Below the pieces are notes generated by a model, which saw nothing but the letters and a program-made list of their open reading frames with translations, was not told the DNA's origin and did not search any database. From contig CBDBLV010000004.1 of assembly GCA_965207225.1 (NCBI GenBank), forward strand, positions 512,001 to 576,000: a DNA stretch of 64,000 nucleotides, in the 5' to 3' direction. The stretch comes from Dehalococcoidia bacterium (GTDB lineage Bacteria; Chloroflexota; Dehalococcoidia; Plut-88900). Positions 1,002 through 11,556 of this stretch are shown here, in pieces (positions within the stretch are counted from its first letter, which is position 1; each line of letters opens with the position of its first letter). A program made the translations under genes and the position numbers.

Positions 1002-3059
1002 CTACCCCTCCAAAGACTCCGCCAATATCTCCACCAGGTCCTTCGCCTCCAGCTTCCCTTCCTGTTCCTTCACCCGGATCCCGTCCTCGAACATCTGCAG
1101 ACAGAACGGGCACGACGTCCCCACCACCTCCGCCCCCGTATCCAGCGCATGCTCCGTCCTCACGTGGTTGATCCTCTTCCCCTTGGACGACTCCTCGATC
1201 CACATATGACCGCCCCCCGCCCCGCAGCAGAACCCCCGACTCCGGTTCCTCGCCATCTCCAGAGTCTTGATCCCCGGGATCTTCTTCATCATTCTTCGAG
1301 GCTCTTCATAGACTCCGTTGTGCCGACCCAGGTAGCACGAATCATGGTAGGCGACCTTCTTGTCGATAGGCTTCTTCGCCTTTATCTTGCCCTGCTCCAT
1401 CAGCTGGTCGATGAACTGATTATGGTGCAGCACCTCGAACTCGCCCCCGAACTGCGGATACTCGTTTTTCAGCGTGTTGAAGCAGTGCGGGCATGCCGTG
1501 ACTATTCGGTTGATGCCGTGCTTCTTTAGCGTCTCGATGTTCTGCTCCGCCATCAGCTGGAACAGGTACTCGTTCCCCATTCGCCGTGCCGGGTCCCCGT
1601 TACACGTCTCCTCATCCCCAAGGATCGAGAAGTTCACCCCTGCCGTATTCATCACCGACGCCAATGATTTGGCTATCCCCTGGCTCCTCTCCTCCAGCGC
1701 AGGCGTACACCCGACCCAGAACAGCACGTCGGGGTGGGGATTATCTGAGATCAGCTTGACGTCCACGCCCTCCGTCCAGTCAGTCCGAGTGAACTTTGTG
1801 CCGGACCAGGGATGGCCTCGTGTCTCCATGCTTCGGAGGGCGGCCTGGCCGGTCTCGGGCATCTTGCCTTCTTCCAGCACCAGGTGCCGGCGCATGTCTA
1901 CTATGCTGTCTATGTGCTCGATGGCCACCGGGCATTCCTGCTCGCAGGCGCCGCAGGTAACGCAGTCCCAGATCGCCTCCTCGGACACGGCATGCCCGAT
2001 GACCGGTATCGACGAACCGTTCCCGTTCTCACCCTCGGCCTTGATAACCCCAGGCCCGACTTCAAGCAGGTGGTCCTTTATCCCCTCCACCACGTGCATC
2101 GGCGAAAGCACCTTGCCCGTCAGGTTAGCAGGGCAAGCGTCCGAGCATCGACCGCACACCGCACAGGCGTAGCCGTCCAGCAGCTCTTTCCATGTGAACT
2201 CGTTGACCAGGTTAGCCCCGAAGCTCTCCGCAGTCTCGATGTCCTTGATCGGGTGAAGGGTGCCTCTCGGGTTTACGTCGTGGAGGAATGCGTTGATTGG
2301 CGCCCCGATCATGTGCATGTGCTTGGAGAACGGAATGTACATGCTGAAGCCGATAATCAACGCCAGGTGAGCCCACCAGAAGATCCCGTGTAAGGTGTTC
2401 ACCACCCCGAAGCTCGCCCCGTCGAACAGCTTCCCGAGCAGTGTCCCTACCGGCGAGGCCGCATGCGGGCTCACTTCCGCCACCGCATCCTGGTTGACCA
2501 TTGCGTTATAGAAACCTTCAACCAGGAATGTGAGAATCATCAGGTTGGCTATTGCCGCGACGATGATTACTGCATCCGAACTCCGGGTCAGGTCGAAGCT
2601 CAACCGCCTTGGCTTCGCCAGCCACCGCCGCACCAGCGCCCAGGTAAGAGCCGTCAGAATCGCAAGCCCAAGGGCGTCCAACACGAACACGTATACCTTG
2701 ACCCCGGTGTCGGTCAGTATCGTCTCGGAGATGTGCGGGTTAATCGAGTCCAGGAACACGAAGAGCACGTAGCTCAGCGCGAAGCACAGGAATCCCCAGA
2801 ACACGAAAACGTGCCCGAGCCCGGCTTTGTCCTTCAACGATACCCTCTGGAGTACCTTCCTCTGGCCCAGCACCACCACCAGGGCGTTCATGCTTCTCTG
2901 GATCGGGTGGTCGAACCGGTTCTCCTTCTTACCCAGCATCACCAGGCGGAACACACGGGTGTAGACCACGTAGCCCGCAAACCCGAACCCAAGCACCGCA
3001 AATGCGAACACTCCGATCCAGAGCGGTATGAATCCAAAAATCTCGCCTGGTGGCACCAT
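1002..3059 (-). CDS. Membrane-bound Fe-S oxidoreductase, FadF/HdrD/GlpC-like (TM domain, 2x[4Fe-4S], CCG domains)
   Basis: N-terminal TM helices with ..PFSKHMH.., CAVCGRCSDACP, CVTCGACEQECP, TACPHC, YHDSCYLGR, FCCGAGGG, SCPFC. ATG at 3059 with AGGAGA SD. Confidence 0.85.
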   Translation of the reverse strand: MVPPGEIFGFIPLWIGVFAFAVLGFGFAGYVVYTRVFRLVMLGKKENRFDHPIQRSMNALVVVLGQRKVLQRVSLKDKAGLGHVFVFWGFLCFALSYVLFVFLDSINPHISETILTDTGVKVYVFVLDALGLAILTALTWALVRRWLAKPRRLSFDLTRSSDAVIIVAAIANLMILTFLVEGFYNAMVNQDAVAEVSPHAASPVGTLLGKLFDGASFGVVNTLHGIFWWAHLALIIGFSMYIPFSKHMHMIGAPINAFLHDVNPRGTLHPIKDIETAESFGANLVNEFTWKELLDGYACAVCGRCSDACPANLTGKVLSPMHVVEGIKDHLLEVGPGVIKAEGENGNGSSIPVIGHAVSEEAIWDCVTCGACEQECPVAIEHIDSIVDMRRHLVLEEGKMPETGQAALRSMETRGHPWSGTKFTRTDWTEGVDVKLISDNPHPDVLFWVGCTPALEERSQGIAKSLASVMNTAGVNFSILGDEETCNGDPARRMGNEYLFQLMAEQNIETLKKHGINRIVTACPHCFNTLKNEYPQFGGEFEVLHHNQFIDQLMEQGKIKAKKPIDKKVAYHDSCYLGRHNGVYEEPRRMMKKIPGIKTLEMARNRSRGFCCGAGGGHMWIEESSKGKRINHVRTEHALDTGAEVVGTSCPFCLQMFEDGIRVKEQEGKLEAKDLVEILAESLEG

Positions 3060-3194
3060 ATTTTTCGTGTCTCCTGAGGGGGAATTTACGAACGGAAACC
3101 GGGCCGCGAGTGTAGCACGCCCCAAACTCCGCCAACAAGCGAAGGGGCCGCACATGGCGGCCCCTTCTTGACTATCTTTCTTCTCGGAATATCC

Positions 3195-4079
3195 CTAAAC
3201 CCCAGCCTTCCTCTTCGCCTTCTCCTCCACTGGCGCAGTCGACACCAGGTGCCTCTGCATCTCCATCTCCTTCGGGCTGAACCCGAGCGCCAGCCCGACC
3301 AGCTGCGGCAGATGCAGCACAGGCAGGTTTATCTTCTTACCCTTGTGCTGTTCCGCCCGACTCTGCGTCCCGTCCAACTCCAGGTGGCAGAGTGGACAGG
3401 GGGTTACCATCGCGTCGGCGCCCTTGTCCTTTGCCTCCAGCGTGTGAGTCCCGCACATCTCCAGGCTGTTCCGCTCGTTGGGGTACAGGATCGGGAACCC
3501 ACAGCACTTCCCTTTGCCCTTTGTCGCGACAACATTGCCACCGAGAGCCTTGATGGCGTTCTCTAGCGACACCTTCCGGCTCTCCTTGCCCTTCGGCACT
3601 ACCACCTCCGGTGGACGCCGCAGATAGCAGCCGTAGAAGGCAGCGACATTGAGCTCCTCGAGGGGGTTCACCACCATCTCCTGCAGCTTGTCCAGCCCAT
3701 AGTCCTCGTCCAGGACCCACAGGAAGTGCTTTACATCCGTGGTGCCTCTGTATTCAAGGCCTTCCTCCGCCAGGTACTCCCGGTTGATCCTGTCCCGGTA
3801 CTCGGGATCGTTGACCAACCGATGGTTAGCCTGCATCAGGCAGCCCTGGCAGGTGCTGCAGATCGTCATTATCGGTAGGCCCATAGCCTCGGCTTTAGCC
3901 AGCGTCCGGGCGTTGATCGGGTCTGAAACCTCCCTGCTCAGCACCCCTGCCCCCGTACACCCGACATCCTTCATCTCGAACAGCTCGATCCCAAGCTTTT
4001 CGGCTACCTTTATCGCCGCCGGGTACAGCTCGGGGCAGCCGCCTTTTGCTACACAGCCCGGGTAAAATGCGTATCTCAT
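3195..4079 (-). CDS. HdrB/SdhE-like CCG-domain subunit
   Basis: MRYAFYPGC.., [38 protein letters not shown]. The ATG overlaps the sdhB-like stop (ATGA). Confidence 0.85.
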
Positions 4080-5032
4080 TTGCTGCCTTTCTCCCACGTT
4101 TCGAATATCCTCTTGATGTGCTTGGCGCCCGGCCTCTTCTTGTGCAGATATGGCAGAGGCGCTTTGCGATGCGCCATCGCCTTGGCCGCCGTAGGCACCA
4201 GGTGCATCAGCCCTCCGATATTGGTCAGACCCTCGCTCTCGATGGCGAGCCGGGCCTCGTCCAGCCACCCGCTCGACTTTATCGACTTAGCAAAGCTGTC
4301 GTTGTGTCGCACCACCCGCGGAGTCCCGATGCCCCTCTTTATCGCCTCGTCCCTCAACGACAGAATCCTGTCCGTCGGGTCGATGCCCTTGGGGCAGTGC
4401 TCCGTCGCCTCGAAGCAGTGGACGCAGTCCCACATCCCCCTCTTCTCGCTCAGCTCCGAAAGCCGTCTTTCGATCACCTTGTCCCGGGGATCAGCCACCG
4501 GCTTGAACGCCCTCGTCAGCGCCGCCGGCCCGAGGAACGTCTTGTCGATGACCAGCACCGTGCATCCCTCGTCGCACATCCCGCACAACGTGCAGCTGGA
4601 GGCCTCCTGTAGTTCCTTGATCTTCTCCTGGGAGACTATGTGTTCCTCCGCAGGCCCGGGCGGCGAAGGCTCGATCCAGGGCTTCGTGGTTGCATACTTG
4701 TCGAACAGGAACTCTTCCTGGTCGTAGATCAGGTCCTTCACTTCCTTTACAAGCCTGGGCGGATCGAGCGTGATCTCTCCATCCACCTGGGCCTTGGAGA
4801 CCGGCATTCTGCACGCCCACTTCGCCTTGCCGTTAACCCTCATCGTGCAATCGCCGCAGAAGCCCGTCCGGCACGAGCCCCGGAACGACAAAGTCGCGTC
4901 CTGCTCATCTCGCACCTGGATCAAGGCATCCAGCACCGTGCTCTGCTCCTCCACCTCTACGGAGTAGGTCTGCCGGCTCCCGTCCCCGTTCGACACGGGA
5001 TCGTAGCGTCTTACATTCAGATTCACCTGCAT
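4076..5032 (-). CDS. Succinate dehydrogenase/fumarate reductase Fe-S subunit-like
   Basis: [2Fe-2S] motif [35 protein letters not shown], plus a C-terminal extension as in HdrB-anchored complexes. Confidence 0.85.
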
Positions 5033-6655
5033 CTAGCTGCTCCCTTCCGGCTGCCATCTGGTGACCGTTACGGGTTCATAGTCCAGTTTAACCCCGTCGC
5101 CCGAACCCCGGGCCACGGTATGCTTAAGCCAGTTCTCATCGTCCCTGTTCGGGAAGTCCGTCCGGGAGTGCGAACCCCTGCTTTCTTCCCGCGCCAGCGC
5201 CGAGGCTACAATAACCCCGGCCACGTCCAGCATGTTCCCCAGCTCGATTATCGAGCCGATCTCCGTGCTGTATCCTGTAGCTGGCCCCTGCACCCCAACC
5301 GCATCGCACCTTTCCCTCAACTCCGACAGTTTCGCTGCCGCCGCATCCAGCCCCGAGCCGTCCCTGTATATGCCCGCGTTTTCCTGCATCAGGGAGGCCA
5401 GCTCCCCCCTGATAACGCCTGCGCTATCGCTGCCCTTCCCCCGGGCCGCAATTGCCGCGACCTTCCTCTCCTCATCCGCCTGGTGGGATGCCAGGTCGGG
5501 TGCAGGCCCCACAGACCCAGCGTGCCCCGCCGCCGACTCCCCCGCTCTCCGGCCAACCACTACGCTCTCCAGAAGCGAGTTGCCGCCCAGCCGGTTCGCC
5601 CCGTTCAGCCCCGAGTTCGCACACTCACCGGCAGCATACAACCCCGCCACCTCCGTCGAGCCTGAACCGTCGGTCTTTATCCCGCCGATGGGCCGGTGCA
5701 TCACCGGCCTTACCGGGACCGGGTCCTTGCTTATGTCAATGCCGGCTAGGTCCTTTATCAGCGCCCGGGTCTCGGCCAGCCGCCCCGAGTCAACACTCGT
5801 GAAGTCAAGAGATACATCCCCGTTTACAAGCTCTTTTGCCACAGCCTGCGACACCACGTCGGAGCTTGCTAGGGAGTCGACCTGTGAACTATTAGATCCC
5901 ACCAGCACCGCCCCCTCTCCCCGTGCTGCTGCGGTTATCAAGACTCCATTCGGGGCCAAAGCAGTGGGTGCGAATTGCACCATCTCCATGTCCCTCAAAG
6001 CCGCTCCCGCTCGATACGCCATAGCCACCCCGTCGCCCGTGGAAGCCGTGGATGCCGTGTTGTCCCGGTACATTCGACCCATTCCACCCGTCGCCAGCAC
6101 CACCGCCCCCGACGAATACGCGACCAGCGAACCATCCCTCAGGCTTCGCGCAAACACCCCCTGGCAGGACCCGTCATCCATCATGATCAATGACACCGCC
6201 GAGCAGTCGTGGTGTACGGGTATCTGCACCCTCAAGACCTGTTCGTAGAGCGTCTGCAGGACGTTGTGGCCCGTGGCGTCACCGCAGTAGCAGGTGCGTG
6301 CCTCGGAAGACGCCGGGAACTTTATCTGGTCTATTCTCCCGTCGCCGTTCCGGTCGAATGGCACGCCCATGTGCTCCAGGCCAATGACCCTGGCAGCCGC
6401 CTCCTGGCAGATGCTTTCAACCACATCCTGGTCGGACAGGTAGGCGCCCGCCTTGACCGTATCCAGCCCGTGCGACTCCCAAGCATCCGCCCCCCTCAGC
6501 CCCGCATTTATCCCACTCTGCGCCCCCGACGAATGACTGCGCAACGGGTGCTGCTTGGTAACTATGCAAACGCTCGCCCCCTGCTCCCGGGCCGACAGGG
6601 CGGCGCTCATACCGGCGAAGCCTCCGCCAACTACTACTACGTCATATCGAGGCAA
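5033..6655 (-). CDS. SdhA/FrdA-family flavoprotein with a divergent active site
   Basis: GGGFAG FAD motif, RSHS..AQSG, LATGG, TGDG, GANRLGGNSL, REESRGSHSRTDFP. Probable TTG start at 6655 with CAGGAGG SD (alternative ATG at 6691). Confidence 0.85.
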   Translation of the reverse strand: MPRYDVVVVGGGFAGMSAALSAREQGASVCIVTKQHPLRSHSSGAQSGINAGLRGADAWESHGLDTVKAGAYLSDQDVVESICQEAAARVIGLEHMGVPFDRNGDGRIDQIKFPASSEARTCYCGDATGHNVLQTLYEQVLRVQIPVHHDCSAVSLIMMDDGSCQGVFARSLRDGSLVAYSSGAVVLATGGMGRMYRDNTASTASTGDGVAMAYRAGAALRDMEMVQFAPTALAPNGVLITAAARGEGAVLVGSNSSQVDSLASSDVVSQAVAKELVNGDVSLDFTSVDSGRLAETRALIKDLAGIDISKDPVPVRPVMHRPIGGIKTDGSGSTEVAGLYAAGECANSGLNGANRLGGNSLLESVVVGRRAGESAAGHAGSVGPAPDLASHQADEERKVAAIAARGKGSDSAGVIRGELASLMQENAGIYRDGSGLDAAAAKLSELRERCDAVGVQGPATGYSTEIGSIIELGNMLDVAGVIVASALAREESRGSHSRTDFPNRDDENWLKHTVARGSGDGVKLDYEPVTVTRWQPEGSS

Positions 6656-6711
6656 TGGCTCCTCCTGTAAGGGAAAATGCGGCGGTTTCATTCAGGGGTG
6701 ACCGCGCGGGG

Positions 6712-6741
6712 ATTATATTTAATGGCTGGGCTGGGTGTCAA
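6712..6741 (-). promoter_or_regulatory. Sigma70-type promoter for the sdh-like operon
   Basis: Perfect TTGACA-N18-TATAAT on the minus strand. Confidence 0.7.
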
Positions 6742-6812: not shown

Positions 6813-8093
6813 ATGGTCTTGGGCTGGCTTACGGTGGAGGAGGCCTTGGAGAAGATCCTCGGTTACGTCAAGAGGCTGAGCGTCGAGGAGAAACCCCTCC
6901 TGGACTCCCTCGGACAGGTCCTGGCGGAAGACGCAGTCTCAGAATTCTCCATACCTCCCCGCGACAACACCGCAATGGACGGATACGCCGTCCGCTGGGA
7001 CGACATCCGGTCCGCCTCCTTCGACTCCCCGGTAGACCTAAAGGTCATCGAAGAGCTCCCCGCCGGCAAGATCGCAGTCAAGGCCGTTTCCGAAGGCGTT
7101 GCCATCAGGATTATGACCGGCGCCCCTATGCCCGATGGCGCCGACACCATAGTCCCCTTTGAAGACACCGACGAACTGGACCGTAATCCAAAACCCGGAC
7201 CCGGTGGTGTTGATGAGATTGGTATCCGTAAGGCATGGAAGATTGGCTCAAATATCCGCCGCGCCGGAGAAGACGTGGTTCCCGGAACAGTCATCATAAA
7301 GGCAGGCACTGTCCTACGTCCCGCCGAGATCGGAGTCCTTGCCTCCCTCGGAATGCCTACGGTCAAGGTCTATCGCAAGCCCGTTATCTCCGTTCTAGCC
7401 ACCGGGGACGAGCTCTTGGAAGTGGGAGAGGCCCTCGCCCCCGGCAAGATCTACAACAGCAACAACTACAGCGTCGCAGGCCTCGTGCTGCGATACGGCG
7501 GCATCCCCAAGGTCCTCGGTATCGCCCGGGACAACATGGACTCCCTCCAGGCCAAGATAGCCGAAGGCGTGGACGCCGATATGGTGATCACCTCCGCGGG
7601 AGTCTCCAAGGGTGACTATGACATCGTGAAGGACGTCCTCGCCCAGGAGGGCGAAATAGCCTTCTGGATGGTCAAAATGAAGCCCGCCCGGCCCCTCGCC
7701 TTTGGCCTCCTGAAGACCCGCGACACCTCGGGCCGCATGCGGGAGGTGCCCCACCTCGGACTTCCCGGCAACCCCGTAAGCTCCATGATCGCTTTCGAGC
7801 AGTTCGGGCGTCCTGCCTTGCTTAAAATGCAGGGCAAGAAAGACCTCGCCAAGCCCACCATAGAAGCCGTGATGGAGGACTCCATAGTCAACACTGACGG
7901 CCGACGCATTTTCGCCCGAGCCGTCGTCACCAAGCGCAACGGCCAATACTACGCCCGCACTACCGGGCCCCAGGGCTCCGGCATCCTGACTTCCATGTCT
8001 CTGGCCAACGGCCTCGCCATCGTCCCCGAGGATGTGGCCGCCGTCAGCGCGGGTGACTTTGTCCAGGTCCAGATGCTCGACTGGGGAGCCTAG
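6813..8093 (+). CDS. moeA: Molybdopterin molybdotransferase
   Basis: NTAMDGYA, RIMTGAPMPDGAD, ATGDEL, GVSKGDYD, GLPGNPVS, QGSGILTSMSLANG. GGAGG SD. Confidence 0.95.
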   Translation: MVLGWLTVEEALEKILGYVKRLSVEEKPLLDSLGQVLAEDAVSEFSIPPRDNTAMDGYAVRWDDIRSASFDSPVDLKVIEELPAGKIAVKAVSEGVAIRIMTGAPMPDGADTIVPFEDTDELDRNPKPGPGGVDEIGIRKAWKIGSNIRRAGEDVVPGTVIIKAGTVLRPAEIGVLASLGMPTVKVYRKPVISVLATGDELLEVGEALAPGKIYNSNNYSVAGLVLRYGGIPKVLGIARDNMDSLQAKIAEGVDADMVITSAGVSKGDYDIVKDVLAQEGEIAFWMVKMKPARPLAFGLLKTRDTSGRMREVPHLGLPGNPVSSMIAFEQFGRPALLKMQGKKDLAKPTIEAVMEDSIVNTDGRRIFARAVVTKRNGQYYARTTGPQGSGILTSMSLANGLAIVPEDVAAVSAGDFVQVQMLDWGA

Positions 8094-8103
8094 CCCCGAC
8101 GCC

Positions 8104-8385
8104 TCAGTCCACCCTGAACCCGATATACTGCTCCTCCGCATCGGACCAGCATGCCTCCACTGCCTCTACCTTGGCAGCCGGTGGGCCTATGTGAAGACGC
8201 TCCAAAAGACGTTCCAACTCCACTCTTGGCCCCTCCGCAACAACCTCCACGGAACTGCCGTCGACCCGATTGTACGCGTATCCCGTCAGTCCGCGTGAGA
8301 TGGCTTCGTTCTGCACAAAATACCTGAAGTAGACTCCCTGCACCCGTCCACGGACCAGTGCGGTGACTCTGACTGCGTCACTCAT
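8104..8385 (-). CDS. acyP: Acylphosphatase
   Basis: VRGRVQGVYFR..GYAYN..DGSSVEVVAEG..GPPAAKV. Confidence 0.92.
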   Translation of the reverse strand: MSDAVRVTALVRGRVQGVYFRYFVQNEAISRGLTGYAYNRVDGSSVEVVAEGPRVELERLLERLHIGPPAAKVEAVEACWSDAEEQYIGFRVD

Positions 8386-8460
8386 GTGGTTGTCTCAAGC
8401 CAGGGAGAATCGGCAGCACAGCCTACTTCACTTTCCTTGGTCGCGACATCCCCATTCGCA

Positions 8461-8490
8461 TTGCGTGGCGAAATGTCGCAAGCCTATAAT
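8461..8490 (+). promoter_or_regulatory. Sigma70-type promoter for the channel gene
   Basis: TTGCGT-N18-TATAAT upstream of a GGAGGAG SD. Confidence 0.5.
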
Positions 8491-8515
8491 GACATCCCCC
8501 GGAGGAGAGCATTCA

Positions 8516-9103
8516 GTGAATCGACACCGCCGCAGGGACAACCAGTTCGAGCGCATTGCCCCAGACAGGCCGGGTGAGGACGTCCTGCGCCGAAGAGTCC
8601 GGTCCAATCCTCAGCTCAGGCTGAGGCCTGGTCTGCCAGGCGTCGTGAATTTCGGAAAGGTGCTCTTCACCGAGACTCCCCTGCTCCTTTCACTGTCCAT
8701 TGTAGCCTTCATGGCCGGCATCGTAGCCACCCTTATCTACTTTTTGGAAAGGACCGCCAATCCCAACGTAGGTAGTTTCGTAGATGCGCTATGGTGGGCC
8801 ATCTTCACCATGCAGACCGCCGGAAACAGCTGGAGGCCCGAGACCCTATGGGGCGGCATCGTCGGTGGAGGCTGGTCCATTATCGGCACCATCATGTTCT
8901 ATGGCGCAATTATCGCGAGCGTCACCGTCTTCTTCATACGCAGGCGGGAACGCACCGATGTGGAATTGATCACCACAATCAAGCGAAACTTGGATGACCT
9001 GGACAACCTCACGCTGGAGGAGTTGGAGCTCCTTAGAGAGTCCACCAGCAATCTGGTTGCCCTCCATATTGAACAGATCAAAATGCGCACCCCGAACAGG
9101 TGA
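8516..9103 (+). CDS. Two-TM KcsA-like ion channel with a non-canonical filter
   Basis: TM1, pore helix SFVDALWWAIFTMQTAGNSWRPETLWG, TM2, coiled-coil tail. GTG start after GGAGGAG. Confidence 0.75.
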   Translation: MNRHRRRDNQFERIAPDRPGEDVLRRRVRSNPQLRLRPGLPGVVNFGKVLFTETPLLLSLSIVAFMAGIVATLIYFLERTANPNVGSFVDALWWAIFTMQTAGNSWRPETLWGGIVGGGWSIIGTIMFYGAIIASVTVFFIRRRERTDVELITTIKRNLDDLDNLTLEELELLRESTSNLVALHIEQIKMRTPNR

Positions 9104-9143
9104 TTGACCCACTCTTCCATCCTCCGAGTTAAAATACAAAACG

Positions 9144-9578
9144 ATGATTTACAGACGTATCATGGTGGCCGTAGACGGCAACACCGCCGACGAAGAGGCC
9201 GTATCTCTCGCCTGTAGGTTCGCCCAGGAAAGCAAGGGCACGGTCTTCGTACTCTACGTCATTGAAGTTCCTCGCTCATTCCCCCTGGATGCGGAAATGG
9301 GGTTGGAGGTCCGAAAGGCAGAGGCTGTCCTTGACTACATGGAAAGCCTGGCCAAGGGCCAGCACACATCGGTACAGACCGAAGTTGTCCAGGCCCGACA
9401 CTCGGGCCTGGGCGTTGTCAAGGCAGCAGCTGATCGCAGGATCGACCTGGTGGTGATGAACACCCTCTACGAAAGAAAATACGGGGAGTTCACCCTTGGC
9501 AGCGCCGCACCATACGTCTTGGAAAACGCGAAGTGCCACGTTTGGCTCTACCGCGGCCCTATGAATGGCGCAGGTTAA
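9144..9578 (+). CDS. Universal stress protein
   Basis: YRRIMVAVDG..LYVIEVP..DLVVM..LGSAAPYVLENAKCHV. Confidence 0.88.
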   Translation: MIYRRIMVAVDGNTADEEAVSLACRFAQESKGTVFVLYVIEVPRSFPLDAEMGLEVRKAEAVLDYMESLAKGQHTSVQTEVVQARHSGLGVVKAAADRRIDLVVMNTLYERKYGEFTLGSAAPYVLENAKCHVWLYRGPMNGAG

Positions 9579-9642
9579 CCTTGCCCTATTGTCTCATCGG
9601 AGTGAGCAGTTCGACTCCGCTGGAAATCTTCGTGAGTACACA

Positions 9643-10041
9643 ATGAATATAGTAATTGTAGGATGCGGCAGGGTCGGCGGCAGGCTTGGAACTGTCCTGG
9701 ATGCTGAAGGCCACAAGGTCACGGTCATGGATATCGACGAGGACAGCTTCCGTTTCTTGGGCCCCAGCTTCCGAGGTGAAGCGTTGATCGGCGACGGCAC
9801 CGACGATGACGACCTCGTCCGAACGGACATCGACGATACCGACGTTCTCATCGCGGCAACCGAGGATGACTCTTGCAACTTGCTCGCCGCTCAGAAGGCC
9901 AAGGTCCAGTACAAGGTCCCGAAAGTCGTCTGCCGGGTCTATGACCCCGTCCAGAAAGAACTCTTTAGAGATTTAGGAGTCGAAACCGTCACCCCGACTA
10001 CAGTTACCGTGGAGCTTCTCAAGGACGCGATCGAGAGGTAG
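9643..10041 (+). CDS. TrkA-family NAD-binding (RCK_N) protein
   Basis: MNIVIVGCGRVG, GDGTD, AATEDDSCN, RVYDP. Confidence 0.88.
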   Translation: MNIVIVGCGRVGGRLGTVLDAEGHKVTVMDIDEDSFRFLGPSFRGEALIGDGTDDDDLVRTDIDDTDVLIAATEDDSCNLLAAQKAKVQYKVPKVVCRVYDPVQKELFRDLGVETVTPTTVTVELLKDAIER

Positions 10042-10052
10042 GTGCCGCCAAC

Positions 10053-10736
10053 TTGTACATACTCCTAGTCGGGGGAGGCACCCTCTCCCATAACCTCGCC
10101 AAGGACCTCCTGCTGCGTTCCCATGAAGTGCTGATTGTCGAGCGTGATAGGGAGCGCGGCGAAGAGCTGTCTCGGATACTCGGCGATGTGGTATTGCGCG
10201 GTGACGGTTGCGAGGCTTCCGTCCTCGAAATGGCAGGTGCCAGCCGCGCCGACACCCTCATCGCCACCACCCGCGAGGACAAGGACAACCTGACTGCCTG
10301 CCAGGTCGCAAAAGCCAGGTTTCGCATCCCCCGCACCATATCCACCATCAACGACCCCCGCAACGAGCCGCTCTTCAAAAGGCTAGGTGTGGACGTGACC
10401 ATCAGCGTTACGGACATTATCCTCTCCAACATAGAACACCGGATACCGGAGCGTTCCGTAGTGCCGCTCTTTGAAATTGAGGAGTCGGGCGCCGAGCTCG
10501 TATCCGTCAAAATCCCCCCCGACGGCGGAATCAATGGTAAGCGGCTTGAAGATATCACGCTCCCGGAGGGCACAATCGTCACCCTAGTTATAGATAAGGA
10601 CGGTGCCGCCCAGCCCCCCAAACCCGACCTCGTACTCAATGAAGCCGACGAAGTAATCGCCTTGACCTCGTCTGAGGAAAAAGAGACCTTGCGCGCCACG
10701 CTTTCCGGCGAACTAATCCCTAGTTCCGATGACTAA
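10053..10736 (+). CDS. TrkA-family potassium uptake regulator (RCK_N + RCK_C)
   Basis: ILLVGGG, GDGCE, TREDKDN, INDPRN, and a C-terminal TrkA_C domain. Confidence 0.88.
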   Translation: MYILLVGGGTLSHNLAKDLLLRSHEVLIVERDRERGEELSRILGDVVLRGDGCEASVLEMAGASRADTLIATTREDKDNLTACQVAKARFRIPRTISTINDPRNEPLFKRLGVDVTISVTDIILSNIEHRIPERSVVPLFEIEESGAELVSVKIPPDGGINGKRLEDITLPEGTIVTLVIDKDGAAQPPKPDLVLNEADEVIALTSSEEKETLRATLSGELIPSSDD

Positions 10737-11556
10737 GCGCCTCGGGTTCCTCGGCCCTCCCGGTACCTTCACCGAAGAAGCCGCTGTTCTTTATGACTCC
10801 GGCGCCCACCTCGTTCCCCTTCCATCCATCTCTGCCGTGGGCTCCGGAGTCGTCTCCGGCATGGTCGAAGAGGGTGTGGTTGCCATCGAAAACAGCATCG
10901 AAGGCTCCGTCACCGACACCTTGGACCTCCTCATTCACGGCTCGGACCTCGCCATCAAGTACGAGGTCGTTCTGCCCATCCGCCACTGCCTCCTCGTCCA
11001 GCCCGGGGCCCAGGCCAACGACATCAAGGTCGTCTATTCCCACCCCCAGGCCCTGGCCCAGAGCCGCCGCTTCCTCGAAAGGTGCTTCCCCAAGGCACAA
11101 ATGGAAGCCGCCCTCAGCACCGCCGCAGGCGTGGAGGAAGTGAAGAAGAGCGACGGCTCAGCCGCAGCCGTCGCAACCAGGCGCGCCGCCGACCTTTACG
11201 GCGTCCACGTCCTCGCCTCCGACATTCAGGAGACCGTGACCAACGTCACCCGTTTCGTCGTCTTGGCTACCCAGGACCACCCTTCCACCGGCGCCGACCG
11301 CACCTCTCTCTGCTTCTCTTTCGATGACGACAAGCCCGGCATCCTGGTCGAGGTCCTCGGAGAGTTTGCCGGCCGGGGCATCAACCTCGGGAAAATTGAG
11401 TCCCGACCCTCCAAGGACGTCCTCGGCCGCTACATCTTCCTCGTAGACCTCTTCGGCCACCGCCTCGACCCCCCCGTCAAAGAAGCCCTTGACCGCATTA
11501 GTGAAATATCGTCCCGGCTCAGGGTATTCGGGTCCTATCCCCGCTTCACCTCATAA
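10729..11556 (+). CDS. pheA: Prephenate dehydratase
   Basis: FLGPPGTFTEEA, ENSIEGSV, SHPQALAQ, NVTRF, KIESRP, FGSYP. Confidence 0.95.
   Translation: MTKRLGFLGPPGTFTEEAAVLYDSGAHLVPLPSISAVGSGVVSGMVEEGVVAIENSIEGSVTDTLDLLIHGSDLAIKYEVVLPIRHCLLVQPGAQANDIKVVYSHPQALAQSRRFLERCFPKAQMEAALSTAAGVEEVKKSDGSAAAVATRRAADLYGVHVLASDIQETVTNVTRFVVLATQDHPSTGADRTSLCFSFDDDKPGILVEVLGEFAGRGINLGKIESRPSKDVLGRYIFLVDLFGHRLDPPVKEALDRISEISSRLRVFGSYPRFTS

Follow-up and report, generated by a model that had tools for sequence, protein, structure and literature searches.

A conserved complex II paralogue without the succinate/fumarate catalytic residues in a lineage of Dehalococcoidia

The DNA analysed here (the window) is a stretch of 64,000 nucleotides of a Dehalococcoidia bacterium (GCA_965207225.1, contig CBDBLV010000004.1, positions 512,001 to 576,000). 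Its source genome, named G000 in this work, is 92% complete. A three-gene operon on the minus strand at window positions 3195–6741 encodes an SdhA-like flavoprotein, an SdhB-like iron-sulfur (Fe-S) protein, and an HdrB-like CCG protein, the parts of a complex II. Few known enzymes are as conserved as complex II flavoproteins, and the flavoprotein of this operon lacks the residues on which succinate/fumarate chemistry depends. The features of the operon are as follows.

6712..6741, minus strand: sigma-70-type promoter, TTGACA at 6741-6736, an 18-nt spacer, and TATAAT at 6717-6712, with 12/12 consensus matches
6653..6666, minus strand: Shine-Dalgarno sequence AGGAGG (6666-6661) and likely true start codon TTG (6655-6653), as read from the sequence
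5033..6691, minus strand: SdhA-like flavoprotein, 552 aa from ATG 6691 or ~540 aa from TTG 6655
4076..5032, minus strand: SdhB-like Fe-S subunit, 318 aa, 2Fe-2S/4Fe-4S type, with Fer2_3 and Fer4_8 domains
3195..4079, minus strand: HdrB/SdhE-like CCG subunit, 294 aa from ATG 4079, with the Pfam CCG domain in 2 stretches (3e-20)
3133..3163, minus strand: GC-rich hairpin, likely terminator of the three-gene operon, GGGGCCGC-CATGT-GCGGCCCC (3163-3143), then TTCGCTTGTT

An earlier sequence-only reading of this DNA had described a perfect TTGACA-N18-TATAAT promoter in front of intact, tightly coupled genes, and both were found. Promoter-like sites in 6.2 kb numbered 2, against 1.2 expected from shuffles. 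The promoter upstream of the flavoprotein orthologue was kept in 9/9 genomes of the window's genus and in G309, which represents another genus of the same family. G310 and G311, from two further genera of the family, carried TTGACC with TATAAT when read by eye. The start codon of the ORF list (open reading frames), ATG 6691, lies only 21 nt past the −10 box. The true start of the flavoprotein is probably TTG 6655, because AGGAGG precedes it and because, in 6/9 genus genomes, the frame has no start codon ahead of the TTG at this position; CAGGAGGAGCCATTG likewise precedes the flavoprotein gene in other genus genomes. All three frames are intact, the flavoprotein stop codon TAG directly abuts the ATG of the Fe-S gene, and the Fe-S stop codon and the CCG start codon overlap in ATGA. 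The terminator hairpin occurs at the same place in 9/9 genus genomes, with different stem sequences and conserved complementarity. A consensus terminator scan missed it because the T-run is too weak.

The family models supported the type E/Mfr architecture that had been proposed, with a flavoprotein, an Fe-S subunit, and a CCG subunit. The flavoprotein matched FAD_binding_2 (6e-85) and Succ_DH_flav_C (2e-38) in Pfam and scored 546 bits against TIGR01812, under the cut-off of 567.3; every equivalog model in NCBIfam remained far under its cut-off. The Fe-S subunit scored 209.8 bits against PRK05950 (cut-off 228). The CCG subunit scored 204 bits against MFR_anch_SdhE (cut-off 500) and 199.6 bits against the HdrB model TIGR03288 (cut-off 345). 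The curated NCBIfam cut-offs were thus missed by all three genes, and the nearest models were SdhA/FrdA, SdhB, and the MFR anchor SdhE/HdrB.

The residues of the flavoprotein were read from a HMMER alignment to solved SdhA/FrdA chains (M. smegmatis Sdh and E. coli FrdA). Every motif change reported earlier was seen in this alignment. The distal carboxylate His (E. coli SdhA H242) is replaced by Ala241, exactly at the codon named before (5971-5969), so that QFAPT stands for QFHPT/QYHPT. The Glu of the T-E pair (SdhA E255) is replaced by Ala254 (codon 5932-5930), with LITAAARGEG for L(I/M)(S/T)E. The catalytic Arg of the capping domain (SdhA R286) is replaced by Ser277 (codon 5863-5861), with SLASSD for LAPRD. 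The capping domain is shortened, with gaps of 8 and more residues relative to the solved SdhA/FrdA chains. Two further motifs differ from the solved chains, namely RSHSSGAQSG for RSHT.AAQGG and HRPIGG for HY.MGG. The residues on the flavin side, said earlier to be kept, are present: the flavin-linking His of RSH (His53, codon 6535-6533), the flavin-proximal His (SdhA H354; His332, codon 5698-5696), and the Arg of GANRLGGNSL (SdhA R399; Arg367, codon 5593-5591). The flavoprotein would therefore appear to keep what is needed to hold and reduce its flavin adenine dinucleotide (FAD) and to bind one adjacent carboxylate.

An AlphaFold2 (AF2) model of the flavoprotein, built on 32 relatives, reached a pLDDT of 85.4 and a pTM of 0.90. 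The model superposed on E. coli FrdA 6awf_A with a TM score of 0.92 and a root-mean-square deviation of 2.0 Å. Since a confident model superposes on E. coli FrdA, the predicted overall fold, including the smaller cap, is intact. The four-domain complex II flavoprotein fold and the FAD_binding_2/Succ_DH_flav_C architecture are both present.

A canonical type-E sdhABE was found elsewhere in the genome (G000:C2:39955-43469), with its own Fe-S and CCG genes, which answers the earlier question of whether a normal sdhA exists beside the altered one. The canonical flavoprotein is 46% identical to that of the window by genome search and 43% by BLAST, and it shows every expected motif (AAQGG, QYHPT, LLSEAARGEG, ELASRD, HYQMGG). 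A search of 61 relatives found both copies in each of the other 11 genomes of this family, hence in 12/12. The operon pair is not an effect of assembly or contamination, because several of the family genomes are single contigs. We therefore took both loci from all 12 family genomes, comprising nine of the window's genus together with G309, G310, and G311 from three other genera.

The canonical copies were invariant at every motif in 12/12 genomes (AAQGG, QYHPT, SEA, SRD, HYQMGG). The paralogue kept the order flavoprotein/Fe-S/CCG with all frames intact in 12/12, and its distal His was lost in every one (Ala in 10, Thr in 1, Ser in 1). Its catalytic Arg was lost in 10/12, being Ser or Asn in the nine genus genomes and Ser in G310, and was kept in G309 and G311. 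Its Glu was replaced by Ala in the nine genus genomes and kept in the three other genera. The capping domain shortens along the same series of His, Arg, and Glu loss. The losses are nested and stepwise, with the His lost first, then the Arg, and then the Glu together with part of the cap. The state H-to-A, E-to-A, and loss of the Arg held in 9/9 genus genomes and in six metagenome proteins, the Arg site being Ser or Asn. Within these 15 members of the degenerate clade, LITAAARGEG was unchanged in 14/15.

No interconversion of succinate and fumarate is expected from a flavoprotein of this kind, because the catalytic Arg, the Glu, and the distal His are gone. From the known roles of these residues it is well supported that the paralogue would be unable to interconvert the two by the known mechanism. 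With a canonical enzyme at hand in every family genome, we favour a repurposed paralogue. Of the repurposed complex II suggested by the sequence-only reading, the part that it is no longer a normal succinate/fumarate enzyme is thus well supported through the residue roles; the nature of a new substrate and the link to quinone are speculative.

The window's flavoprotein belongs to a wider paralogue family, which was defined in this analysis and is not a curated one. Its hallmarks are HRP[IMLV]GG for HY.MGG, (H/Q)SG for QGG after the flavin His, and a Cys209-to-Ala change in the partner Fe-S protein. The family alignment comprised the query and its best 120 hits (121 rows). HRP[IMLV]GG was present in 120/121 rows and the distal His was kept in 93/121. 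The full-length HRPIGG rows (n = 120), in classes defined by the feature itself, fell into 92 that keep His and Glu, 13 that lost the His and kept the Glu, and 15 that are fully degenerate. The flavin-linking His was replaced by Gln, Ala, or Met in 14/121 rows. AQSG and HRPIGG, which had been listed as part of the degeneration, are hallmarks of this family rather than signs of decay, because most of its members keep His, Glu, and Arg. Two hits carry the NCBI name 'FAD-dependent oxidoreductase [Dehalococcoidia bacterium]'. Because the JGI annotation of relatives reads 'succinate dehydrogenase / fumarate reductase flavoprotein subunit', metabolic reconstructions would count a second succinate dehydrogenase/fumarate reductase, which it very likely is not.

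A quick maximum-likelihood tree was built from 62 rows, namely the 12 family paralogues, 5 canonical copies, P0013–P0024, and every third of P0026–P0125, with the remaining two thirds of the latter left out. A branch of 0.5 (support 100) lay between the HRPIGG family and the canonical copies. All paralogues of the window's family and their metagenome relatives grouped together (24 rows, support 86). A clade of 15 rows (support 100), with a stem branch of 0.43, comprised the fully degenerate type. Elsewhere in the HRPIGG family the His was lost independently (P0080, P0083, P0086).

The occurrence of the family was followed in two even samples. Of 301 genomes drawn from the phylum, 225 had a match, and of 401 drawn from the class, 155 did; up to 30 best-matching loci were parsed per search. 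These tallies include five unpublished genomes, on which no claim is built. The first motif parse, covering 47 of 56 loci, gave nine of HRPIGG type, all from the window's family. The second, covering 30 loci, also gave nine, of which eight came from the family and one was L085, a locus in a record titled as a Dehalococcoidia metagenome-assembled genome. The HRPIGG operon at L085 keeps His and Glu and has Fe-S and CCG genes, and its genome holds a second flavoprotein locus at 45% identity. A locus search with the family alignment, with patterns that were too general, returned 80 loci; only L085 was parsed, and the others were 36–46% identical and came from many phyla. One relative in the class has, at G493:C16:21350-24816, two tandem flavoprotein genes that are 52–53% identical to P0041, and the one that was parsed is of canonical type.

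The wider family bears on the possibility that the paralogue is still a fumarate reductase or succinate dehydrogenase in which other residues, such as Arg333 of HRPIGG, stand in for His, Glu, and Arg. Arg333 is indeed a family-specific basic residue adjoining His332. The His seems dispensable in this family, since it is lost in the Glu-keeping P0080 and P0083, while 92 of the 120 full-length rows keep His and Glu and most members keep the Arg too. Arg333 would nevertheless not have arisen as a substitute, because it is equally present in members that keep the catalytic Arg. The same three residues stay unchanged in 12/12 canonical copies of the family, and the His and Glu motifs occur in the parsed HY-type copies (38 loci, one without a parsed Glu motif, and 21 loci). 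SdhA R286 acts as proton donor and acceptor in the part of PMC9557727 that treats it. A canonical enzyme already present in every family genome also argues against a second one, and we consider this explanation improbable.

Selection on the operon was estimated as the ratio of nonsynonymous to synonymous change (dN/dS, omega) by pairwise Nei-Gojobori comparisons against G000. The dN/dS of the paralogue flavoprotein was 0.073–0.090 within the genus (about 0.075), at dS from 0.17 to 1.9. The values were 0.009–0.063 for its Fe-S subunit and 0.012–0.063 for its CCG subunit. The canonical flavoprotein gave 0.028–0.075. Omega by flavoprotein domain, summed over 10 genome pairs, was as follows.

Cap core (258-305): paralogue 0.195, canonical 0.013
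N-terminal FAD domain: paralogue 0.060, canonical 0.015
C-terminal FAD domain: paralogue 0.082, canonical 0.083
Helical domain: paralogue 0.129, canonical 0.093
C-terminal domain: paralogue 0.108, canonical 0.096

These ratios show that the paralogue flavoprotein gene is clearly maintained by purifying selection. Constraint in the cap core is relaxed about 15-fold relative to the canonical copy, and the release lies mainly at the former dicarboxylate-binding part. In the degenerate clade, 22 positions are fixed for a residue other than the one kept in at least 80% of the relatives that keep His, Glu, and Arg. They include H363N (next to Arg367), F164S, V47Q, and A42C, and they point to new constraints rather than to loss alone. 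As a separate observation, dS was about twice as high in the degenerate as in the canonical operon for the same pairs (0.86 vs 0.37 and 1.7 vs 0.8). This excess could come from stronger codon bias in the canonical operon or from recombination.

The loss of three catalytic residues and of part of a domain, together with the raised amino-acid rate of the flavoprotein, is what a decaying, functionless leftover of a duplicated complex II would show. The three frames remain intact in 12/12 family genomes. At dS up to ~1.9, dN/dS is still 0.07–0.09 for the flavoprotein and 0.01–0.06 for its partners, and the promoter, the Shine-Dalgarno sequence, the coupling of the genes, and the terminator are conserved. 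Decay of this kind is very improbable. Strain-specific decay, against which the sequence-only reading had asked to be judged, is contradicted by the conservation in the clade and by the dN/dS.

In the type-E Fe-S subunit, four Cys in the second ferredoxin motif provide a second [4Fe-4S] cluster instead of [3Fe-4S]. The Fe-S subunit of the window has Ala209 (codon 4408-4406) at the third Cys of this motif, which reads C-x2-C-x2-A-x3-C-P. Position 209 was Ala in 13/13 HRPIGG-type operons, compared with Cys in 11/11 canonical ones. The remaining 11 cluster cysteines are kept, and the long C-terminal tail is common to the canonical paralogue. A [3Fe-4S] in which C-x2-C is an unusual ligand pattern is one possibility for the third cluster, and a non-Cys ligand is another. 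In the CCG subunit, the 10 cysteine columns in common with the canonical paralogue were kept in 12/12 family genomes. Apart from the family-wide Cys-to-Ala change, the electron wire formed by the Fe-S and CCG cysteines is predicted to be intact.

The loss of residues was said earlier to remove what covalent flavinylation needs. The loss need not abolish flavinylation, however. In the relevant part of PMC9557727, R399 of SdhA stabilises the quinone-methide intermediate of the flavin, R286 protonates or deprotonates the substrate, and flavinylation needs a carboxylate near N5. With the assembly factor SdhE of E. coli, even acetate gives ~30% flavinylation according to the same part of that source. 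By analogy, flavinylation of the paralogue would be possible, because Arg367 (SdhA R399) is kept and acetate supports ~30% flavinylation with SdhE. A profile search did not find the flavinylation factor Sdh5/SdhE (PF03937) in G000, which is uninformative for the paralogue because the canonical copy of the same genome is also without the factor.

Downstream of the operon lies the following gene.

1002-3155, minus strand: membrane Fe-S gene, likely start ATG 3059, with a multi-helix membrane domain, two 4Fe-4S motifs, and two CCG domains

The C-terminal half of its product is HdrD/TmcB/TfrB-like, and we take the product to resemble membrane Fe-S oxidoreductases that receive electrons from electron transfer flavoprotein. 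Between the CCG gene and this gene, TTCGCTTGT comes after the terminator hairpin, and then a TGnTACACT box and a Shine-Dalgarno sequence with ATG (3059), an arrangement found in 9/9 genus genomes. The gene is single-copy and present in 35/41 relatives. It adjoins the operon only in the window's genus, and in the three other genera of the family it is at least 87 kb away or on another contig. It was considered as a fourth member of the operon and rejected, given the hairpin with compensatory stem changes, its own box and Shine-Dalgarno sequence, and its different distribution. With its own signals, single copy, wide spread, and genus-only adjacency, it is a neighbour and not part of the operon. 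Just downstream of this gene, a small ORF at 539-766 on the plus strand matched DUF7387 (E 8e-7, 29.9 bits, cut-off 27.9).

A MoeA molybdopterin molybdotransferase (6813-8093, plus strand) is divergent from the promoter region of the operon. It is adjacent to the operon in 9/9 genus genomes and not in the three other genera. The window at 8363-11556 encodes a weak ion-transport-like membrane protein, a universal stress protein (Usp), two TrkA-N proteins, and a prephenate dehydratase. The operon of G668, which keeps His, Glu, and Arg, is surrounded by genes for YbeY, DnaX, a transketolase, a transporter of the major facilitator superfamily, and leucyl-tRNA synthetase.

In the G000 genome, at 92% completeness, neither NadA nor aspartate dehydrogenase was found, and no protein passed the cut-off for NadB. 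The sole match was a weak one to QRPTase_C (C5:1871749-1872312), and this sponge-associated lineage may lack the de novo route from aspartate to NAD. In NadB, a His/Arg pair binds aspartate. His332 and Arg367 of the paralogue correspond to this pair, and with no NadB above the cut-off the paralogue might be thought an L-aspartate oxidase-like enzyme that feeds quinone and replaces the missing NadB. There would be no quinolinate pathway to feed, because NadA and aspartate dehydrogenase were also not found in G000. The score against TIGR00551 was 370.7 bits, under the cut-off of 452.75. Moreover, a Glu column after the DATG motif, invariant in five readable NadB-like proteins of relatives, is Leu145 in the paralogue. 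The replacement of NadB was rejected on the missing NadA and aspartate dehydrogenase and on Leu145, and it is hardly credible.

Public sequencing runs with parts of the stretch were mostly labelled sponge metagenome, and one sponge metagenome contig spanned 1528-8200 at ~95% identity. In a single sponge metatranscriptome run, 12 small contigs matched the stretch with at least 85% identity, and contigs on the CCG, Fe-S, and flavoprotein genes were 93–98% identical. This is a weak hint that the paralogue operon is expressed, as it comes from a single run in which DNA carry-over is possible.

We propose that the operon encodes a flavoenzyme linked to quinone that has been repurposed, has ceased to interconvert succinate and fumarate, and acts on another substrate, a reading in which our confidence is evenly divided. 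The complex would still be a membrane-associated, quinone-linked oxidoreductase. Its FAD would exchange a hydride with a substrate that needs one carboxylate and no Arg/Glu proton shuttle, and candidate substrates would be a monocarboxylate with a 2-hydroxy or 2-amino group, or some other small acceptor. From FAD, electrons would pass through the three clusters of the Fe-S subunit and the CCG subunit to the quinone pool. Purifying selection keeps the FAD motifs, His53, the flavin-proximal carboxylate pair His332/Arg367, the LIT loop, both CCG domains, and, apart from the Cys-to-Ala change, the cysteine ligands of the Fe-S subunit. More tentatively, and with somewhat less confidence than in repurposing itself, this complex II lineage of sponge-associated Dehalococcoidia would have abandoned dicarboxylate chemistry while retaining its FAD, Fe-S, and CCG wire, and would represent a novel type of flavoenzyme linked to quinone. 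Its substrate would then be something other than a dicarboxylate, for example an enoate, a sulfur compound, or a monocarboxylate with a 2-hydroxy or 2-amino group.

Several points weigh against an enzyme with a new substrate. The strongest relaxation lies in the cap, which forms half of the substrate site in this family, and it fits a site that may no longer matter equally well as a remodelled one. The former Arg position varies between Ser and Asn with neighbouring indels. Amino-acid change in the paralogue flavoprotein is 2.5–4 times that of the canonical one for the same genome pairs (dN 0.063 vs 0.016 and 0.13 vs 0.05). The retention of His332 and Arg367 is no proof of substrate binding, because both serve flavin chemistry. 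No plausible substrate-pathway gene was found around the window operon, around the G668 operon, or further downstream in the contig. The metatranscriptome contigs, for the reasons given with them, add little on the other side.

The main rival is that the flavoprotein serves in electron transfer only or is a pseudoenzyme, FAD-bearing or structural, with the chemistry taking place at the CCG clusters (for example a thiol/disulfide or other HdrB-type reaction) or at a protein partner docking at the place of the former cap closure. The CCG subunit is the most conserved of the three, with 77–82% identity between genera against 53–59% for the flavoprotein. Constraint is relaxed chiefly in the cap core and the N-terminal FAD domain, and the remaining three domains are constrained like the canonical copy. 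The former Arg position varies between Ser and Asn, and no replacement acid/base residue was identified. This rival has to account for a flavoprotein omega of ~0.075, which reaches no more than 0.195 in the cap core, for HRPIGG, GANRLGG, and His53 being fixed in the clade with LITAAARGEG in nearly all members, and for the 22 clade-specific fixed replacements, which suggest new constraints. In addition, the CCG subunit of type E is regarded as an anchor and not as a substrate site in the part of PMC2754724 that describes it. We consider an electron-transfer-only role rather unlikely, and less so than any of the other rivals.

A clade that keeps a whole complex under purifying selection after the loss of its catalytic residues is a natural experiment on the potential of this scaffold. 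The series is graded, from members that keep His, Glu, and Arg, through genera that lost the His or the His and Arg, to a genus without all three and without part of the cap. It is ready material for biochemistry on how an active site is dismantled or rebuilt. If the new-substrate reading is true, the path of neofunctionalisation would be directly testable, with the intermediates alive in sister genera.

Among known systems, the type-E succinate:quinone oxidoreductase of Sulfolobus/Acidianus (SdhABEF) shares its three core parts and their order with the paralogue, with a CCG protein in place of the haem-b anchor. The canonical copy of G000 is of type E, with 4 Cys in the second ferredoxin motif. 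The paralogue differs from type E in lacking the His, Glu, and Arg of the site, in its shortened cap, in Ala209 of the Fe-S subunit, and in having no fourth gene for a small subunit. As described in part of PMC2754724, the SdhE of a type-E complex II is a monotopic anchor with CCG domains that binds a [4Fe-4S] cluster.

The 8-methylmenaquinol:fumarate reductase (MFR) of Wolinella/Campylobacter (SdhABE) has the sdhABE order and a CCG third subunit in common with the paralogue, and MFR_anch_SdhE is the best NCBIfam match of that subunit. The paralogue lies far under the cut-offs of the three MFR models (347 vs 1100, 127 vs 600, and 204 vs 500). MFR is periplasmic and exported by the twin-arginine pathway, whereas no twin-arginine motif was seen at the N-terminus of the paralogue flavoprotein. 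MFR reduces fumarate, whereas the flavoprotein of the paralogue is without the residues for fumarate reduction. The MFR operon offers a precedent in being annotated as 'succinate dehydrogenase' when its real activity was different, as stated in part of PMC2680327. In the thiol:fumarate reductase of methanogens (TfrAB), Fe-S and CCG domains likewise accompany a flavoprotein of this family. The paralogue is far under both cut-offs (TfrA 385 bits vs 718, TfrB 119 vs 385). TfrB fuses the Fe-S and CCG parts, which are separate genes in the paralogue, and Tfr reduces fumarate.

NadB has the same fold and FAD domain, and its flavin-side His/Arg pair is also found in the paralogue. The NadB-like proteins of relatives keep QFHPT, SEA, and PRD, and, unlike the paralogue, NadB has no Fe-S or CCG partners. 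The closest parallels to the residue changes are engineered variants of E. coli FrdA/SdhA at R287/R286, E245/E255, and H232/H242, made to disable proton transfer and dicarboxylate binding, and the paralogue carries substitutions of this kind all at once. The entry for FrdA E245Q (5vpn) was among the structural neighbours of the AF2 model. The E. coli variants are loss-of-function, whereas the paralogue has its substitutions fixed throughout a clade and is under purifying selection beside a canonical enzyme.

We found no description of the paralogue, or of an SdhA without these residues, in the full-text literature outside subscription journals and bioRxiv supplements, and such forms are not mentioned in passages of a 2023 review of non-canonical complex II (PMC10238741). 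Compared with these systems, the type E/MFR architecture is known, and the novelty lies in catalytic residues whose loss is conserved, in the change of an Fe-S ligand across the family, and in the living intermediates.

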